Shown in pieces: positions 1 through 8,277 of a stretch of 8,277 nucleotides of DNA; position 1 is the stretch's first letter; every line of letters starts with the position of its first letter. Below the pieces are notes generated by a model that worked only from the letters and a program-made list of their open reading frames with translations, had not been told where the DNA came from and ran no database searches. Source of the DNA: a virus (taxonomy: Duplodnaviria; Heunggongvirae; Uroviricota; Caudoviricetes); IMG/VR virus record IMGVR_UViG_2778261504_000019, positions 1 to 8,277 of that record; one strand, given 5' to 3'. The translations under genes were made by a program, and so were the position numbers.

Positions 1-335
1 ATTTAGTGGTGACATTGGCTTGTATATTCTTTATTAGTGCATGTAAACCATCAGATAATTATGTTATTTCTTTAGGGGAAGACTTAGTTAAAGATAAACT
101 TATTGATCCTGATAGTGCAAAGTTTAATTCTTTTTTCCATAAGTCAGGTGATTTATATGGCTATGTTTGTGGAGATGTCAATTCAAAAAACACGTTTGGT
201 GGATATACAGGGAAGAAACCATATTTTGTTTATTTGGAAGTTGTGGACGGAAAAGTTAAGAGTCATGGAACTGTAACAATTGTTAATGACCATGACCCGG
301 GCGGTATGGAAAAATATAAGTTGTTTTGCCAATAA
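1..335 (+). CDS. Putative small lipoprotein of unknown function, moron-like accessory gene, probably 5'-truncated by the window edge
   Basis: ORF in frame 6..335 with stop TAA at 333-335; the frame is open back to position 3. The N-terminus VTLACIFFISAC-K is a hydrophobic h-region ending in a lipobox-like I-S-A-C with +2 Lys, but no basic n-region is visible, so the true start is probably upstream of the window. By eye the region is about one-third GC against roughly 55% for the rest. Followed directly by an intrinsic terminator. I do not recognise the mature ~96-aa product. Confidence 0.6.
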   Translation, partial: LVVTLACIFFISACKPSDNYVISLGEDLVKDKLIDPDSAKFNSFFHKSGDLYGYVCGDVNSKNTFGGYTGKKPYFVYLEVVDGKVKSHGTVTIVNDHDPGGMEKYKLFCQ

Positions 336-345
336 TTATCATCTT

Positions 346-370
346 AAAAAACCGCAGAAGCGGTTTTTTT
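346..370 (+). terminator. Rho-independent terminator, hairpin flanked by an A-tract and a T-tract (potentially bidirectional)
   Basis: AAAAAACCGC-AGAA-GCGGTTTTTTT: 4 GC pairs extended by A:T pairs, 4-nt loop, then a run of 7 T; located 11 nt after the lipoprotein stop and 15 nt before the tape measure ATG. Confidence 0.7.
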
Positions 371-384
371 ATGGGTTAAAGTAA

Positions 385-3300
385 ATGGCGACATTACGTG
401 AACTGATTATTAAAATCTCGGCAAACTCCCGGTCATTCCAGTCAGAGATCGCCCGGGCTTCGCGTATGGGGCAGGATTACTACCGTACCATGCAGAACGG
501 AGGCCGGCAGTCCGCTGCTGCATCCCGTGAAATGCGGCGTGCACTGGCAGAAGTGACGGATCAGATAAATACAGCTAAATCTTCGGCACTGAATATGGCG
601 GGGGCATTTGCCGGGGCTTTTGCTACCGGTCATCTTATTTCTCTCGCCGATGAGTGGAATTCAGTAAATGCCCGTCTGAAGCAGGCCTCACAGTCCAGTG
701 ATGATTTTCAGGTATCACAACGTGAATTAATGGCGATCAGCCAGAGAACGGGGACGGCGTTTTCTGATAACGCCAGCCTTTTTGCCCGTTCTGCAGCTTC
801 CATGCGGGAGTATGGCTACAGTTCTGAGGAGGTACTGAAAGTCACCGAGGCGATCTCCACGGGCCTGAAATTATCCGGTGCCAGTACAGCAGAAGCCAGT
901 TCGGTGATCACGCAGTTCAGTCAGGCACTGGCGCAGGGAGTGCTGCGCGGTGAAGAGTTTAACTCGGTGAATGAGAACGGCGATCGTGTTATTCGTGCGC
1001 TGGCTGCGGGAATGGGGGTTGCCCGTAAGGATCTGAAGGCCATGGCGGATAACGGAAAGTTGACCGCCGATAAGGTTGTTCCTGCACTGATTAGTCAGCT
1101 TGGGGCATTACGTGATGAATATGCGGCAATGCCTGATACGGTTTCATCCTCTGCAACCAAAGTTGAAAACGCCTTTATGGCCTGGGTTGGTGGTGCGAAC
1201 GAGGCAAGCGGAGTGACGAAGACGCTCTCCGGTGTGCTGAATGGTATTGCAGGCAATATTGACACCGTGGCAACCGCTGCCGGTGCTCTGGTTGCCGTCG
1301 GGGTAGCCCGATATTTTGGCAATATGGCGTCGTCTGCTGGATCTGCAACTGCCGGATTAATTACTGCAGCCAGAAACGAAGTGGCTCTTGCTGAAGCGCA
1401 ACTTCGGGGGACACAGATAGCAACCGCCAGGGCGCGTGCGGCGGTTTATCGTGCGCAACAGGCGGTTGTTGCTGCTCGCGGTACCGAAAGGCAGGCAGCC
1501 GCAGAAGCGAAACTGGCTGCTGCCCAGGCATCACTTACCCGTAATATTGCGGCCAGAACAGCGGCACAGACAACGCTGAATACTGTCACGTCAGTGGGGA
1601 GTCGTCTGTTAAGTGGTGCGCTGGGGTTGGTTGGTGGTGTGCCGGGACTCGTCATGCTGGGGGCGACGGCCTGGTACACGATGTATCAGAATCAGGAGCA
1701 GGCCAGAGAATCTGCACGCCAGTATGCCGCAACAATCGACGAAATTCGCCAGAAAACGTCGGCAATGTCGCTTCCTGAAGCGTCAGATAATGAGGAAAAG
1801 ACGCGGCAGGCACTTGATGAGCAAAACAGGTTAATTGACGAGCAGAAAAGTAAGATTAAATCCTTACAGGAAAAAATTGCTGGCTATCAGTATGTGCTGG
1901 CAAACCCGGGCTGGACAACCGATAACGGTTTTATGATTAACCACATGACGTCGGTAAAAACTGTCACAGAAGGGCTTGCAGAAGCAACAAATCAACTGGC
2001 AGTTGAACAGTCCCGTCTCACACAAATGCAGGGCAAAGCGCAATCCATTCAGGATGTGCTTGCCGGGCTGGAGGAGCGGCGGGTTGCGTTGATCCGTCAA
2101 CAGGCAGCGGAACAAAACAAAGCGTATCAGTCCATGTTGATCATGAATGGGCAGCATACCGAGTTTAATCGCCTTCTCGGGCTTGGTAATGAATTACTTC
2201 AGCAGCGACAGGGGCTGGTGAATGTACCGTTACGGCTGCCACAGGCCACCCTGGATGATAAACAGCAGACCGCACTGAATAACAGCGAGCGCGAACTGGC
2301 TCTGTCCCGCCTGAAGGGGGAAGCCCGTGAGCGTGCCCGACTGGGTTATGCTGCGGATGATCTCGGCTTTGTGGGAGAGGCGTATCAGACAGCCAGACAG
2401 AATTATATCAATAACTCACTGGATGCCTGGCGAAATAACCAGGCAAATAAACCCAAAGCGCATAAAAAGACCGAAGCGGAAAAAACAGAAGATATTTATA
2501 AACGGCTGATTAAACAGCAAAAAGAACAAATAGCACTGGCAGGTCAGAATACTGAACTGGCTAAGATGAAATATCAGGTCAGTCAGGGCGAATTATCAAC
2601 CCTGTCAGAAGCGCAGAAAAAAACGCTTTTACAGAATGCGGCACTCATCGACCAGAAAAAGATTCGTGAGCAGCTTGCCGCGTATGAAAGCAGTCTGGCG
2701 GACAGTAATGCCAGCGCCCGGGCATCTGACGACGCGCAGTTGCTGGGATATGGTGAAGGCTCACGGATGCGTGAACGACTCCAGGAAATGTGGAGTATCC
2801 GGCAGGCGTTTGAGCAGAAAAATAACGAGCTGCTGAGACAGTATCAGGCCGGAGAAATTGAAGAAGCCCTGTGGAAACAGGAAAAATCGCTGAATGAAAA
2901 ATATCTGGAAGAGCGTCTCAGCGATCAGCAGGATTATTATGCAAAGGCTGATGCTTTACGCAGTGACTGGAATGCCGGACTCCAGGAGGGGCTGACGAAC
3001 TGGGCAGACAGTGCCACCGATTATGCTTCGCAGGCGGCAGATGCTGTCGTTTCCACTATGGACGGGCTGGTATCAAATATTTCCGATGCACTGGCCGGAA
3101 ATGTTGTGGACTGGCGAAACTGGGGGAGTTCAATCCTCCAGGAAGTTTCAAAAATTCTGATGAACGCTGCCATCGTTAACGGGCTGAAGTCACTTTCCAA
3201 AAGCATGTCCGGTGCCGGAGGATGGCTTGGTACGGTCGGCGACTGGCTTTCCGGTGCAGTGGCAAACGCAAAAGGTGGTGTTTACACATCGGCAAATCTG

Positions 3301-3624
3301 AGTGCTTACAGTAACACTATTGTGGATACACCGACGTATTTTGCTTTTGCGAAAGGTGCCGGGCTGATGGGCGAGGCCGGGCCTGAAGCTATCATGCCAC
3401 TGACACGGGCAGCGGACGGCTCTCTTGGGGTCAGAGCCATTGGCAATGTGAATGGTGGCGGGGGATTTGTTTATTCTCCCGTGTATCACATCAGTATTCA
3501 GAATAAAGGGAGCAATGGCGAGATAGATACGCAGTCAGCCAGGGGGCTGGTGGATCTGATCGACAGCAGGGTTGTGTCAATTATGCAGTCATCACGTCGG
3601 GACGGAGGATTATGCAGTGCCTGA
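385..3624 (+). CDS. Phage tail tape measure protein (tail length determinant), lambda gpH-like C-terminus
   Basis: 1079-aa ORF; ATG at 385 is the first in-frame start after a TAA at 382-384. Long Ala/Gln/Glu/Lys-rich helical regions, a Gly-rich hydrophobic segment (SGALGLVGGVPGLVMLGATAWYTMY, about nt 1612-1690), and a C-terminus (...FAFAKGAGLMGEAGPEAIMPLTRAADGSLGVRAIG...RRDGGLCSA) that I recall as resembling the C-terminus of lambda gpH. Position immediately upstream of M-L-K-I-J. Confidence 0.9.
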   Translation: MATLRELIIKISANSRSFQSEIARASRMGQDYYRTMQNGGRQSAAASREMRRALAEVTDQINTAKSSALNMAGAFAGAFATGHLISLADEWNSVNARLKQASQSSDDFQVSQRELMAISQRTGTAFSDNASLFARSAASMREYGYSSEEVLKVTEAISTGLKLSGASTAEASSVITQFSQALAQGVLRGEEFNSVNENGDRVIRALAAGMGVARKDLKAMADNGKLTADKVVPALISQLGALRDEYAAMPDTVSSSATKVENAFMAWVGGANEASGVTKTLSGVLNGIAGNIDTVATAAGALVAVGVARYFGNMASSAGSATAGLITAARNEVALAEAQLRGTQIATARARAAVYRAQQAVVAARGTERQAAAEAKLAAAQASLTRNIAARTAAQTTLNTVTSVGSRLLSGALGLVGGVPGLVMLGATAWYTMYQNQEQARESARQYAATIDEIRQKTSAMSLPEASDNEEKTRQALDEQNRLIDEQKSKIKSLQEKIAGYQYVLANPGWTTDNGFMINHMTSVKTVTEGLAEATNQLAVEQSRLTQMQGKAQSIQDVLAGLEERRVALIRQQAAEQNKAYQSMLIMNGQHTEFNRLLGLGNELLQQRQGLVNVPLRLPQATLDDKQQTALNNSERELALSRLKGEARERARLGYAADDLGFVGEAYQTARQNYINNSLDAWRNNQANKPKAHKKTEAEKTEDIYKRLIKQQKEQIALAGQNTELAKMKYQVSQGELSTLSEAQKKTLLQNAALIDQKKIREQLAAYESSLADSNASARASDDAQLLGYGEGSRMRERLQEMWSIRQAFEQKNNELLRQYQAGEIEEALWKQEKSLNEKYLEERLSDQQDYYAKADALRSDWNAGLQEGLTNWADSATDYASQAADAVVSTMDGLVSNISDALAGNVVDWRNWGSSILQEVSKILMNAAIVNGLKSLSKSMSGAGGWLGTVGDWLSGAVANAKGGVYTSANLSAYSNTIVDTPTYFAFAKGAGLMGEAGPEAIMPLTRAADGSLGVRAIGNVNGGGGFVYSPVYHISIQNKGSNGEIDTQSARGLVDLIDSRVVSIMQSSRRDGGLCSA
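3546..3553 (+). other. Chi motif 5'-GCTGGTGG-3' (RecBCD recombination hotspot octamer)
   Basis: Exact octamer match read directly in the sequence, inside the 3' end of the tape measure gene. Confidence 0.5.
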
Positions 3625-3958
3625 GTCTGAAGTTTTTAACTGGATCCCCCGCGAGGGGATGGAGACGACACGAAAGCCATCTGTTATTACAGTAAAGTTC
3701 GGTGACGGATATGAACAGCGACGGGCTGGTGGTCTGAATGCGGATCTGAAAACCTTTAAACCGGTATTTCGTGTCACAGATGAATATTCCCGCGCCGCGC
3801 TGGACAGTTTTTTATCCCGTCATGCCGGGATGCGTGCTTTTTTGTGGCGCCCGCCAAAACACAACAGGACTGTCAGGGTTGTCTGCAGGGAGTGGAGTAC
3901 TTCGGATAATGCCATGTATACCGATTTTAACTGTACCTTTGAAGAGGTCACTCACTGA
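3617..3958 (+). CDS. M: Phage minor tail protein M (tail tip complex)
   Basis: Frame open 3572..3958. The product contains KFGDGYEQR...GLNADLKTF...FLWRPP, which aligns with lambda gpM as I recall it (RFGDGYSQR...GLNANLKTY...FLWTPP) at similar length. Start chosen as GTG 3617 because GGAGG at 3604-3608 gives 8-nt spacing and it overlaps the tape measure stop; ATG 3659 has no usable spacing. Stop TGA overlaps the L start (TGATG). Confidence 0.75.
   Translation: MPESEVFNWIPREGMETTRKPSVITVKFGDGYEQRRAGGLNADLKTFKPVFRVTDEYSRAALDSFLSRHAGMRAFLWRPPKHNRTVRVVCREWSTSDNAMYTDFNCTFEEVTH
3725..3732 (+). other. Chi motif 5'-GCTGGTGG-3' (second copy)
   Basis: Exact octamer match read directly in the sequence, inside gene M. 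Confidence 0.5.
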
Positions 3959-4656
3959 TGCAGGATATACAACAGGAAACACTGAATGAGTGTACAAAAG
4001 CGGAGCAATCCGCACTGGTCGTGCTCTGGGAAGTCGATCTGACCGAAGTCGGTGGCGAGCGTTATTTTTTCTGTAATGAGCAGAACGAAAAAGGTGAGTC
4101 AGTCACCTGGCAGGGGCGACAGTATCAGGCGTACCCTATTCAGGGAAGCGGCTTTGAGATGAACGGCAAAGGAGCCAGTGCAAGACCAACGCTGAAAGTC
4201 TCTAACCTGCACGGCATGGTCACCGGGATGGCGGAAGACCTGCAAAGTCTGGTCGGCGGAACGGTGGTCAGGCGTAAGGTTTACGCCCGTTTTCTGGATG
4301 CGGTGAACTTCGTCAACGGAAACAGTGACGCCGATCCGGAGCAGGAGGTGATCAGCCGCTGGCGCATCGAGCAGTGCAGTGAACTGAGCGCGGTGAGTGC
4401 CTCCTTTGTACTGGCCACGCCGACGGAAACGGATGGCGCTGTTTTTCCGGGGCGTATCATGCTGGCCAACACCTGCACCTGGACCTATCGCGGTGATGAG
4501 TGCGGTTATAACGGTCCGGCTGTCGCGGATGAATATGACCAGCCGACGTCCGATATCACGAAGGATAAATGCAGCAAATGCCTGAGTGGCTGTAAGTTTC
4601 GCAATAACGTCGGCAACTTTGGCGGCTTCCTTTCCATTAACAAACTTTCGCAGTAA
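3958..4656 (+). CDS. L: Phage minor tail protein L (tail tip complex, Fe-S cluster-binding)
   Basis: 232-aa ORF (MQDIQQETLNECTKAEQSALVVLWEVDLTEVGGERYFFCNEQNEKGE...) that matches lambda gpL in length and, from memory, nearly residue for residue. C-terminal cysteine cluster CTWTYRGDECGY...CSKCLSGC. ATG overlaps the M stop. Confidence 0.93.
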   Translation: MQDIQQETLNECTKAEQSALVVLWEVDLTEVGGERYFFCNEQNEKGESVTWQGRQYQAYPIQGSGFEMNGKGASARPTLKVSNLHGMVTGMAEDLQSLVGGTVVRRKVYARFLDAVNFVNGNSDADPEQEVISRWRIEQCSELSAVSASFVLATPTETDGAVFPGRIMLANTCTWTYRGDECGYNGPAVADEYDQPTSDITKDKCSKCLSGCKFRNNVGNFGGFLSINKLSQ

Positions 4657-4661
4657 ATCCC

Positions 4662-5405
4662 ATGACACAGACAGAATCAGCGATTCTGGCGCACGCCCGG
4701 CGATGTGCGCCAGCGGAGTCGTGCGGCTTCGTGGTGAGAACGCCGGAAGGGGAAAGATATTTTCCCTGCGTGAATATCTCCGGTGAGCCGGAGGAGTATT
4801 TCCGGATGTCGCCGGAGGACTGGCTGCGGGCAGAGATGCAGGGTGAGATTGTGGCGCTGGTCCACAGCCACCCCGGTGGTCTGCCCTGGCTGAGTGAGGC
4901 TGACCGGCGGCTGCAGGTGCAGAGTGATTTGCCGTGGTGGCTGGTCTGCCGGGGTGAGATTCATAAATTCCGCTGTGTGCCGCATCTCACCGGGCGGCGC
5001 TTTGAGCACGGGGTGACGGACTGTTACACGCTGTTCCGGGATGCTTACCATCTGGCGGGGATTGAGATGCCGGATTTTCATCGTGAGGATGACTGGTGGC
5101 GTCACGGTCAGAATCTCTATCTGGATAATCTGGAGGCAACGGGGCTATATCAGCTGCCGTTGTCAGCGGCGCAGCCGGGCGATGTGCTGCTGTGCTGTTT
5201 TGGTTCATCGGTGCCGAATCATGCCGCCATTTACTGTGGTGACGGCGAGCTGCTGCACCATATTCCTGAACAACTGAGCAAACGAGAGAGGTATACCGAC
5301 AAATGGCAGCGACGCACACACTCCCTCTGGCGTCACCGGGCATGGCACGCATCTGCCTTTACGGGGATTTGCAACGATTTGGCCGCCGCATCGACCTTCG
5401 TGTGA
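4662..5405 (+). CDS. K: Phage tail tip assembly protein K, two-domain protein (N-terminal MPN/JAMM metalloprotease-like, C-terminal NlpC/P60 cysteine peptidase-like)
   Basis: 247-aa ORF starting 5 nt after the L stop. JAMM-type motif HSHPGGLPWLSEAD. Downstream Cys (GVTDCYTLF) and His (VPNHAAIY) fit an NlpC/P60 catalytic pair. Sequence matches lambda gpK as I recall it. Confidence 0.9.
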   Translation: MTQTESAILAHARRCAPAESCGFVVRTPEGERYFPCVNISGEPEEYFRMSPEDWLRAEMQGEIVALVHSHPGGLPWLSEADRRLQVQSDLPWWLVCRGEIHKFRCVPHLTGRRFEHGVTDCYTLFRDAYHLAGIEMPDFHREDDWWRHGQNLYLDNLEATGLYQLPLSAAQPGDVLLCCFGSSVPNHAAIYCGDGELLHHIPEQLSKRERYTDKWQRRTHSLWRHRAWHASAFTGICNDLAAASTFV

Positions 5406-5950
5406 AAACGGGGGCCGAAGCCATCCGGGCACTGGCCACACAGCTCCCGGCGTTTCGTCAGAAACTGAGCGACGGCTGGTATCAGGTACGCATTGCCGGG
5501 CGTGATGCAGGTGAAACTGAATTATCAGCCCGTCTTAATGAACCGCTGGCAAATGGTGCCGTGATCCACATTGTGCCGCGTCTGGCGGGAGCCAAAAGTG
5601 GCGGTGTGTTTCAGGCGGTGCTGGGGGCGGCGCTGATTGCGGTGGCATGGTGGAACCCCGCAGGTTGGTTGGGGGCTGCCGCAATTACAGGAATGTATGG
5701 TGCGGGGGCCAGTATGATCCTTGGCGGTGTGGCCCAGATGCTGGCCCCTAAACCCAGAACTCCCCGCACACAGACAACGGATAACGGTAAGCAGAACACG
5801 TATTTCTCGTCACTGGACAACATGGTTGCCCAGGGCAATGTTCTGCCTGTTCTGTACGGTGAAATGCGCGTGGGGTCACGGGTGGTTTCTCAGGAGATCA
5901 GCACGGCAGACGAGGGGGATGGTGGTCAGGTTGTGGTGATTGGTCGCTGA
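5303..5950 (+). CDS. I: Phage tail assembly protein I
   Basis: 215-aa ORF (MAATHTLPLASPGMARICLYGDLQRFGRRIDLRVKTGAEAIRALATQLPAFRQKLSDGWYQVRIAG...QVVVIGR). N- and C-terminal regions match lambda gpI as recalled. Starts 103 nt inside the 3' end of K in another frame. Possible SD GAGAGG about 12-14 nt upstream. Confidence 0.9.
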   Translation: MAATHTLPLASPGMARICLYGDLQRFGRRIDLRVKTGAEAIRALATQLPAFRQKLSDGWYQVRIAGRDAGETELSARLNEPLANGAVIHIVPRLAGAKSGGVFQAVLGAALIAVAWWNPAGWLGAAAITGMYGAGASMILGGVAQMLAPKPRTPRTQTTDNGKQNTYFSSLDNMVAQGNVLPVLYGEMRVGSRVVSQEISTADEGDGGQVVVIGR

Positions 5951-5968
5951 TGGAACATGTTTTATGTG

Positions 5969-5999
5969 AAACCGCCTGCGGGCGGTTTTATCGTTTATG
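5969..5999 (+). terminator. Terminator-like GC-rich hairpin with U-rich tail in the I-J intergenic spacer (possible attenuator or RNA-stability element)
   Basis: AAACCGCC-TGCG-GGCGGTTT followed by TATCGTTT: 5 GC pairs plus 3 A:T pairs, 4-nt loop. Lies in the 60-nt gap between the I stop (5950) and the J start (6011), just upstream of the J SD (GGAG at 5999-6002). Confidence 0.4.
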
Positions 6000-6010
6000 G
6001 AGCATGACGA

Positions 6011-8277
6011 ATGGGTAAAGGCAGCAGTAAGGGGCATACCCCGCGCGAAGCGAAGGACAACCTGAAGTCCACGCAGCTACTGAGTGTGATTGATGCCATC
6101 AGCGAAGGGCCGATTGAAGGTCCGGTGGATGGATTAAAAAGCGTGCTGCTGAACAGTACGCCGGTGCTGGACAGTGAGGGGAATACCAACATCTCCGGCG
6201 TCACGGTGGTGTTCCGGGCAGGTGAGCAGGAGCAGACACCGCCGGAAGGTTTTGAATCCTCCGGTTCCGAGACGGTGCTGGGTACGGAAGTGAAATACGA
6301 CACGCCGATCACCCGGACCATCACGTCTGCAAACATCGACCGTCTGCGCTTTACCTTCGGTGTGCAGGCACTGGTGGAAACCACCTCAAAGGGTGACCGG
6401 AATCCGTCGGAAGTCCGCCTGCTGGTTCAGATACAACGTAACGGTGGCTGGGTGACGGAAAAAGACATCACCATTAAGGGTAAAACCACTTCACAGTATC
6501 TGGCCTCGGTGGTGGTGGATAACCTGCCGCCGCGCCCGTTCAGTATCCGGATGCGCAGGATGACGCCGGACAGCACCACAGACCAGCTGCAGAACAAAAC
6601 GCTCTGGTCGTCATACACCGAAATCATCGATGTGAAACAGTGCTACCCGAACACGGCACTGGTCGGCGTGCAGGTGGATTCGGAACAGTTCGGCAGCCAG
6701 CAGGTGAGCCGTAATTATCATCTTCGCGGGCGTATTCTGCAGGTGCCGTCGAATTATAACCCGCAGACGCGGCAATACAGCGGTATCTGGGACGGAACGT
6801 TTAAGCCGGCATACAGCAACAACATGGCCTGGTGTCTGTGGGATATGCTGACCCACCCGCGCTACGGCATGGGGAAACGTCTTGGTGCGGCGGATGTGGA
6901 TAAATGGGCGCTGTATGTCATCGGCCAGTACTGCGACCAGTTGGTGCCGGACGGCTTTGGCGGCACGGAGCCGCGCATCGCCTGTAATGCGTACCTGACC
7001 ACGCAGCGCAAGGCATGGGATGTGCTCAGTGATTTCTGCTCGGCGATGCGCTGTATGCCGGTATGGAACGGGCAGACGCTGACGTTCGTGCAGGACCGAC
7101 CGTCGGATAAGGTGTGGACCTATAACCGCAGTAATGTGGTGATGCCGGATGATGGCGCGCCGTTCCGCTACAGCTTCAGCGCCCTGAAGGACCGCCATAA
7201 TGCCGTTGAGGTGAACTGGACTGACCCGGACAACGGCTGGGAGACGGCGACAGAGCTTGTGGAGGATACGCAGGCCATTGCCCGTTACGGTCGTAACGTC
7301 ACGAAGATGGATGCCTTTGGCTGTACCAGTCGGGGGCAGGCACACCGCGCCGGGCTGTGGCTGATTAAAACGGAACTGCTGGAGACGCAGACCGTGGATT
7401 TCAGCGTGGGTGCTGAAGGGCTTCGCCATGTACCGGGCGATGTCATTGAAATCTGCGATGATGACTATGCCGGTATCAGCACCGGCGGGCGCGTGCTGGC
7501 GGTGAACAGCCAGACCCGGACGCTGACGCTCGACCGTGAAATCACGCTGCCATCCTCCGGTACCACGCTGATAAGCCTGGTTGACGGAAGTGGTAATCCG
7601 GTCAGCGTGGAGGTTCAGTCCGTCACCGACGGACTTAAGGTGAAAGTGAACCGGGTTCCTGACGGCGTTGCAGAATACAGTGTGTGGGGGCTGAAGCTGC
7701 CGACGCTGCGCCAGCGCCTGTTCCGCTGTGTGAGTATCCGTGAGAACGATGACGGCACGTATGCCATCACTGCCGTGCAGCATGTACCGGAAAAAGAAGC
7801 CATCGTGGATAACGGGGCGCACTTTGACGGCGACCAGAGCGGCACGGTGAATGGTGTCACGCCGCCAGCGGTGCAGCACCTGACTGCCGAAGTCACCGCA
7901 GACAGCGGGGAATATCAGGTGCTGGCGCGCTGGGACACGCCGAAGGTGGTGAAGGGCGTGAGCTTCCTGCTTCGCCTGACCGTGGCAGCGGATGACGGCA
8001 GTGAGCGGCTGGTCAGCACGGCCCGGACGACGGAAACCACATACCGCTTCACGCAACTGGCGCTGGGGCGGTACACGCTGACAGTCCGGGCGGTAAATGC
8101 GTGGGGACAGCAGGGCGATCCGGCGTCGGTATCGTTCCGGATTGCCGCACCGGTAGCACCGTCGCGGATTGAGCTGACACCGGGCTATTTTCAGATAACA
8201 GCGGTCCCGCGTCTTGCGGTGTATGACCCGACGGTACAGTTTGAGTTCTGGTTTTCGGAGACAAAAATCGCAGACAT
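6011..8277 (+). CDS. J: Phage host specificity protein J (central tail fibre / tail tip), N-terminal ~755 codons, 3'-truncated by the window end
   Basis: My own translation from ATG 6011 gives [54 protein letters not shown]..., which I recognise as the lambda gpJ N-terminus, and the frame stays open to the window end. It is absent from the ORF track, presumably because no stop codon falls within the window. SD GGAG 8 nt upstream. Confidence 0.93.

Follow-up and report, generated by a model that had tools for sequence, protein, structure and literature searches.

A two-step mosaic junction between genes M and L in the tail region of a lambdoid prophage

Mosaic junctions between genome modules have reportedly been described in the phages HK97 and HK022 by Hendrix et al. 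(1999, PNAS) and Juhala et al. (2000, J Mol Biol). Recent mosaics with a trace of flanking homology have also been reported for lambdoid phages and defective prophages and put down to relaxed homologous recombination, with Rad52-like recombinases as its agents (PMC2327257; PMC3945230), and tail genes are co-transferred in lambdoid phages (PMC9836094). Here we analyse an 8,277-nt stretch of tail genes from a lambdoid prophage (the window) and compare its M/L joint with these systems. The junction consists of two steps, a deep edge at M/L and a tract nearly identical to lambda that starts at about position 4246.

Gene layout and the deep boundary at M/L

A series of lambda-like tail genes lies on the + strand of the window, and assignment to families by Pfam identifies all open reading frames (ORFs) as tail genes. 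The features discussed below are as follows.

6-335, + strand: small ORF, 5′-truncated, from the ORF list; a low-GC gene upstream of H
385..3624, + strand: H, tape measure, 1079 aa (Pfam Phage_HK97_TLTM, TMP_3 and Tape_meas_lam_C)
3546..3553, + strand: Chi site GCTGGTGG in the 3′ end of H (side observation)
3617..3958, + strand: M, distal tail protein, 113 aa (Phage_min_tail, PF05939, E=5e-32)
3725..3732, + strand: Chi site GCTGGTGG inside M (side observation)
3938..3957, + strand: deep edge of homology, covering the final 20 nt of M up to the TGATG overlap
3958..4656, + strand: L, tail tip hub protein with a C-terminal Fe-S domain, 232 aa (Phage_tail_L, PF05100, E=1.5e-99)
3958..4247, + strand: intermediate-identity zone, the 5′ 290 nt of L (83.8% nucleotide identity to lambda, dS 0.81)
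4246..4365, + strand: internal L breakpoint interval and start of the near-identical tract (from maximum chi-square and the end of identity to the PS1Thumoskin9 prophage)
4248..8259, + strand: lambda-like tail tip block comprising the L 3′ part, K, I and J (segment identities 0.95-0.97)
4662-5405, + strand: K (Pfam Prok-JAB plus NlpC/P60)
5303-5950, + strand: I (Pfam Lambda_tail_I), overlapping K
5491..5753, + strand: second internal mosaic patch, in gene I (68% nucleotide identity to lambda, with indels)
6011 to beyond 8277, + strand: J, with its 3′ end outside the window

Both genes at the joint match their families over their full length: M scores 110.9 bits against PF05939 (cut-off 39), with residues 5-111 of 113 matched, and L scores 331.8 bits against PF05100 (cut-off 25). 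M begins at a GTG codon, as annotated in phage PhiR49_2 and in RefSeq prophages, and overlaps the H stop by 8 nt. The M stop and L start overlap at 3956-3960 in the sequence TGATG. According to the ORF list, the reading frames are intact across the joint and the tail-gene order is kept.

We compared the window with lambda positions 9000-19500 by sensitive blastn and scored a global alignment in 100-nt windows. Blastn returns a single high-scoring segment pair (HSP), covering window positions 3938-8259 at 92.2% identity, and no nucleotide HSP to this part of lambda in H and M, left of 3938. The 100-nt windows up to position 3949 show 35-57% identity, those across 3950-4250 show 76-86%, and from about 4200 on the values are 93-100%. 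The main step falls after 3953 (maximum chi-square 336.6; none of 500 permutations as high), with 63% mismatch on its left and 8% on its right, and the split moves to after 3937 when the comparison is limited to M plus the L 5′ part. The 20 nt at 3938..3957 code for FEEVTH and include the ribosome-binding region of L, and in the alignment all M types converge on CTGATGCAGGATAT at this boundary. The abrupt change of identity to lambda at M/L is thus far beyond chance. An initial annotation of this DNA had proposed a mosaic boundary here, and the identity profile bears it out: homology to lambda sets in at 3938, 20 nt before the M stop/L start overlap, and identity is neither uniform across M and L nor uniformly low across L-K-I-J.

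On the left side of the joint, M shows about 37% ungapped and about 50% gapped nucleotide identity to lambda, and its protein is 40% identical to gpM (44/109), with the motifs FGDGY, GLNA.LKT and FLW.PP all present in the protein alignment. H matches lambda H at 27% amino acid identity over residues 620-1078, and a further weak match lies at the N terminus. The same annotation had described M as only distantly related to lambda and the tape measure as sharing little with it beyond the C terminus, and both descriptions hold. Protein comparison instead aligns H over its full length with HK97 gp16 at 55% identity, and the tape measure is of the HK97 type rather than the lambda type. M is 65-67% identical in amino acids to M of Stx phages, and its nearest counterparts are the M proteins of Stx-converting prophages. 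We considered HK97 as the parent of the left module and rejected it, as only H is close (55% amino acid identity) and M through J are at 34-39%.

To the right of the joint, amino acid identity to lambda is 93.5% for L, 96.5% for K (over the 199 aa annotated in lambda), 82% for I and 97.1% for J residues 1-755, and 4248-8259 is about 95-97% identical in nucleotide sequence except for the gene I patch. This patch corresponds to the Gly/Ala-rich hydrophobic middle of gpI and is the most polymorphic stretch among prophages with the window-type M, with pi up to 0.19. The lambda reference (NC_001416, 13100-18903) has the same M stop/L start and K/I overlaps as the window; unlike the window K, its annotated K is shortened to 199 aa by a 1-nt deletion. 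For L-K-I-J, and with it for the N-terminal portion of J, the host-range protein, annotation is transferable from lambda; for H and M it is not.

We also searched for other features that might mark the joint. Positions 3300-4600 contain no inverted repeats or mobile-element scars and a single direct repeat, of 16 nt, which is at chance level. There are no recombination genes in the window, no Rfam match over its whole length and, in a promoter scan, only chance-level signals. Terminator-like hairpins lie within coding sequence, and one of them (4271-4287) is conserved in lambda, which we treated as coincidental. Site-specific or transposon-mediated cassette exchange, as in stf/invertase systems, finds no support: 3300-4600 lacks inverted repeats, and all ORFs are tail genes. 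The two Chi sites in the window are weakly unusual (0.49 expected; at least two in 13 of 200 shuffles). Chi in the + strand orientation would stimulate exchange leftward, here inside H and not at M/L (PMC12315714), and on this ground we rejected the idea that the sites at 3546 and 3725 gave rise to the joint.

The second step inside L

Identity to lambda changes again within L. The first 290 nt are 83.8% identical to lambda and hold 47 mismatches, against 12 in the other 409 nt, and 12 of the 15 amino acid differences fall in residues 1-97. Maximum chi-square places this second split after 4245, at the last dense lambda mismatch (0/500 permutations). Synonymous divergence follows the same steps: synonymous sites in M are saturated (pS 0.71), and dS is 0.81 for L residues 1-97, 0.10 for L residues 98-232, 0.15 for K and 0.18 for J. 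The ratio dN/dS is alike in the two parts of L (0.073/0.81 = 0.09 for residues 1-97; 0.010/0.104 = 0.10 for residues 98-232), so the difference between the 5′ and 3′ parts reflects age and not constraint.

These results refine two further statements of the initial annotation. Near-identity to lambda from the L start onward has two exceptions, L nt 1-290 and the gene I patch. A breakpoint at the M-L overlap is correct for the deep edge, but near-identity sets in about 290 nt further on, within L.

The prophage of E. coli strain PS1Thumoskin9, which shares the H-M-L-K-I-J order and the junction and is 93.3% identical overall, is 100% identical to the window over about 1700-4365 and then accumulates 2-9 mismatches per 100 nt. 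It is the closest relative over the junction. Its identical tract indicates that M and the L 5′ part were inherited together, with the tract ending inside L; in the most recent visible exchange these two thus moved as one. In an alignment of L 5′ alleles, these form a patchwork of shared polymorphisms.

Occurrence of the junction among E. coli prophages and phages

The arrangement is common in sequenced E. coli. Places covering at least 80% of the window occur in 1829 of 5426 complete genomes, and copies of the M allele at 95% identity or more in 872 of the 5426; homologous places per genome number 2-3 at the median and up to 14. The H-M-L-K-I-J order with the same junction is found in the named phages PhiR49_2 (PV340570.1), vB_EcoS-640R1, phi467 and Evi and in a prophage of E. 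coli Z1323CEC0014. PhiR49_2 and the Z1323CEC0014 prophage are 96.1-96.9% identical over the aligned window; 96.9% is the best overall match, and no record identical to the window was found. Where the named relatives differ from the window, they do so in additional small mosaic patches, which lie in the 5′ third of H, in the L 5′ part and in genes K, I and J, and some of them are without the small low-GC gene upstream of H.

Comparison across these loci reveals several M types beside one L 3′ part. The sampled loci hold four or more M types, among them those of the window, lambda, WP3 and Stx, 50-67% identical to one another in nucleotide sequence and homologous over the whole protein length at 40-67% amino acid identity. 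Apart from Stx, these types share 95-100% identity over the final 409 nt of L. One L 3′ module is thus joined to different M neighbours across genomes. A joint-spanning query matched roughly 9,600 M-L-K places in 4,248 E. coli genomes. In this search, places without a window-type or Stx-like M mostly matched from 3952-3955 (query positions 353-356) among the matches listed. Likewise, among 80 IMG/VR loci, chosen as the best L matches and representing related prophages that are not independent, homology to the window starts at 3300 in 56, which carry its M type; in 10 the start lies at 3938, in 7 at 3954-3955 and in 5 at 3339, the last at only 77% identity. The whole region is evenly diverged from that of Stx phages, and M/L shows no step in that comparison.

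The L 5′ allele varies with the M type beside it. Its identity to the window has a median of 91.4% in carriers of the window-type M and 84.0% in others (Mann-Whitney p=2e-10, a value overstated by related haplotypes), and in the L 3′ part the two groups show no difference (p=0.34). Hybrid combinations also occur. Some pair the window-type M with an L 5′ allele that is WP3-like or intermediate, and in others the lambda-type M stands beside L 5′ alleles no closer to one type than to the other. Of 74 distinct haplotypes, 43 have a significant breakpoint inside L, with divergence higher to its left; the 43 breakpoints are spread over 4020-4270, most of them clustered at 4150-4250. This cluster could also go back to a single ancestral event, or to a few, passed down to many prophages, rather than to repeated events. 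Among carriers of the window-type M, pi is lowest in M (0.018-0.033) and rises two- to three-fold, to 0.046-0.062, at the start of L. We had expected a diversity peak in the L 5′ part of these carriers, and found there only this step up from M, the largest peaks lying in K and I.

Exchange at gene boundaries, as initially proposed, therefore fits the joint as an old module edge and does not describe the recent exchanges, which are intragenic and look like the products of homologous recombination.

Origin of the junction and comparison with known mosaics

We consider it probable that M|L forms the left margin of an L-J pool that co-resident lambdoid prophages share through homologous recombination, with the intermediate zone lying at that margin. 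The tail region of the window prophage would have been assembled from two gene pools, H-M and L-K-I-J. H and M would represent a type-specific tail-shaft lineage without DNA homology to the lambda versions, and L-K-I-J a lambda-type tail-tip block that is 95-100% identical across otherwise different E. coli lambdoid prophages. The several such prophages that E. coli genomes usually carry would supply exchange partners, and the counts of homologous places per genome indicate that partners are available. Homologous (homeologous) recombination, for which we infer either host RecA or phage Rad52-like recombinases as the pathway, would keep swapping pieces of L-J, and exchange tracts would halt leftward where homology ends, at the M stop/L start. 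As H and M lack DNA homology across types, homologous exchange tracts must end inside L-J, and as crossovers need homology on both sides, the few hundred bases beside the edge should be exchanged less. The stretch exchanged least would in consequence remain linked to M and retain older divergence: L nt 1-290 would be swapped less often, stay with its M type and keep a divergence of about 16%, and exchange would keep the sequence to the right of L nt 290 nearly uniform. Either partner in the lambda comparison can be viewed as the product of exchange, and lambda, rather than the window lineage, may be the recombinant.

A first alternative is a single illegitimate (non-homologous) recombination that joined two modules exactly at the M/L boundary, its position explained by selection for intact genes. 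It corresponds to the classical Hendrix/Juhala model and to the modular exchange at gene boundaries proposed in the initial annotation. The joint itself has the expected form, since homology to every other M type stops within the last 4-20 nt of M, synteny and the TGATG stop/start overlap are kept, and no repeat or mobile-element scar lies at the joint. A single event there leaves several features to its right unexplained: the 290-nt zone of intermediate identity and dS, the linkage of this zone to the M type and the scattered breakpoints within L. The PS1Thumoskin9 tract, moreover, crosses the gene boundary and ends inside L. As a full account of the junction we judge illegitimate joining unlikely, although it may be the oldest event at this boundary.

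A second alternative attributes the association of M with the L 5′ part to selection for compatibility, with M and L residues 1 to ~97 forming a co-adapted unit that has to be inherited together, since the ring of gpM is in contact with the HDI domain at the N terminus of gpL. The contact is structurally plausible, as gpM E-loops stack on the ring formed by gpL HDI and gpJ HDII (PMC10721106), and both the tracking of M type by the L 5′ allele and the concentration of L amino acid differences from lambda in residues 1-97 accord with it. However, equal dN/dS in the two parts of L reveals no excess of protein change in the first, the break near residue 97 falls inside the HDI domain and not at a domain border, hybrid combinations of M and L 5′ alleles occur, and physical linkage to a homology edge accounts for the association without selection. 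We regard co-adaptation as quite improbable on these grounds. A compound version, in which selection for the gpM-ring/gpL-HDI interface keeps the first ~97 L codons linked to the M type and the two actively oriented Chi sites left of the joint might bias the position of exchanges, seems to us more doubtful again. If such selection did operate, lambda-like tails would have their true functional module boundary within L and not at M/L. Finally, the idea that no recombination took place and that the step reflects an M evolving much faster than L-J under different constraint can draw on the full-length homology of M proteins and on the quick divergence possible for small structural proteins, but it is contradicted by synonymous divergence more than 20-fold apart in adjacent segments (M saturated, L 5′ 0.81, L 3′ 0.10), by several unalignable M types beside 95-100% identical L 3′ parts and by the even divergence from Stx phages, and we consider it extremely improbable.

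Under the preferred explanation, a shared L-J pool with its left edge at M/L, the joint at the gene boundary would be the old edge of shared homology, and recent exchanges would end inside L and leave the intermediate-identity zone behind. This two-step detail agrees better with models in which phage mosaicism arises by homologous recombination than with pure cut-and-paste at gene boundaries. Beyond its use in annotation the junction has little importance of its own, the arrangement being frequent in the species.

Comparison with described systems places the junction within known variation. Like mosaic junctions of the HK97/HK022 type, it combines collinear tail genes and intact frames with an abrupt passage from unalignable to near-identical DNA and a joint at a gene boundary; it departs from them in that the near-identical tract begins about 290 nt inside L, and nothing essential differs. 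As in the mosaics of Martinsohn 2008 and De Paepe 2014, a tract of more than 90% identity (4248-8259, about 96%) lies beside an intermediate stretch (3938-4247, about 83%) that stands above an unalignable background, and the exchange is between temperate or defective lambdoid E. coli prophages. Measured as intermediate traces are (PMC3945230), the shared tract exceeds 90% identity and its flank, at 83.8%, exceeds the M background given above. The mosaic in the window is longer than those surveyed, extending over at least 4 kb and beyond the window end, compared with a median of about 400-500 bp (PMC2327257; PMC3945230). Together with the presence of the same junction in public phage and E. coli records, this comparison identifies the window junction as standard lambdoid tail-gene mosaicism of an already known kind.

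Chi sites and a hairpin around the M/L joint

The window contains two Chi sites in total, both within the 412 nt that lie left of the M/L joint:

3546-3553, + strand, Chi site GCTGGTGG
3725-3732, + strand, Chi site GCTGGTGG

For both sites, the + strand is the active Chi orientation for RecBCD coming in from the right cos end. A count of two is only weakly unusual for this sequence, with 0.49 sites expected and two or more found in 13 of 200 shuffles. The resembling prophage of E. coli strain PS1Thumoskin9 carries no Chi beyond the same two across 18.7 kb. Lambda and the Stx phages have zero Chi sites in the region that holds the two sites of the window. Within L, near the internal breakpoint, lies a hairpin that resembles a terminator:

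4271-4287, hairpin GGCGTAAGGTTTACGCC with a T-rich run after it

The hairpin is also conserved in lambda, and is probably coincidental.

Divergence within K, I and J, and decayed copies of the region

Window gene K (4662-5405) encodes a 247-aa protein with a complete Prok-JAB domain and NlpC/P60. In a comparison with lambda 14133-14276, a 1-nt deletion sets the lambda reference apart from the window at about 4795, and the lambda frame 5′ of this deletion codes for the same K N-terminus as the window (MTQTESAILAHARR...). Lambda K is therefore annotated as a protein of 199 aa, beginning from a downstream ATG. Gene I contains a divergent patch:

5491-5753, gene I, 68% nucleotide identity to lambda, with indels

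This patch corresponds to the Gly/Ala-rich hydrophobic middle of gpI and is the most polymorphic stretch among prophages of the same M type, with pi reaching 0.19. A smaller patch of divergence occurs in K of the prophage in E. coli strain Z1323CEC0014, at about 5101-5200. In J, the Stx2a phage Stx2_EH1846 is 99-100% identical to the window at 7801-8000 and 52-91% identical in the remaining J, and the final 18 nt of the window differ from lambda and most relatives and match an Stx1a phage. Both are additional mosaic patches within J, at 7801-8277.

Two E. coli loci represent decayed copies of the region. In AB66, ISEc52 is inserted in M at the equivalent of window 3886, and CAVP879 carries a prophage remnant, adjoining iraM, whose truncation point is equivalent to 3981.

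Tape measure gene H and the small gene upstream

Gene H is itself mosaic, with a variable 5′ third at window 400-1700. The PS1Thumoskin9 prophage is 15-40% divergent from the window over this segment and identical from 1700, and the Z1323CEC0014 prophage is identical across 1-1600. Upstream of H, within window 1-385, is a small gene:

6-335, small ORF, left end cut by the window edge, low GC (33%)

It is flanked by tail assembly protein T and H, and its 113-aa product has an FISAC motif resembling a lipobox. The protein has no match in Pfam and matches phrog_2320, of unknown function, in PHROG. The gene is found in some E. coli prophages (for example, at 2494-2835 of prophage locus L011) and is missing from PS1Thumoskin9 and from PhiR49_2, a phage with the same arrangement as the window. 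Because its slot is that of the HK97 moron gp15, the small gene is probably a moron. Window H shares 55% amino acid identity with HK97 gp16 over its full length, whereas M through J are just 34-39% identical to HK97, and H/M therefore forms a further module edge relative to HK97.
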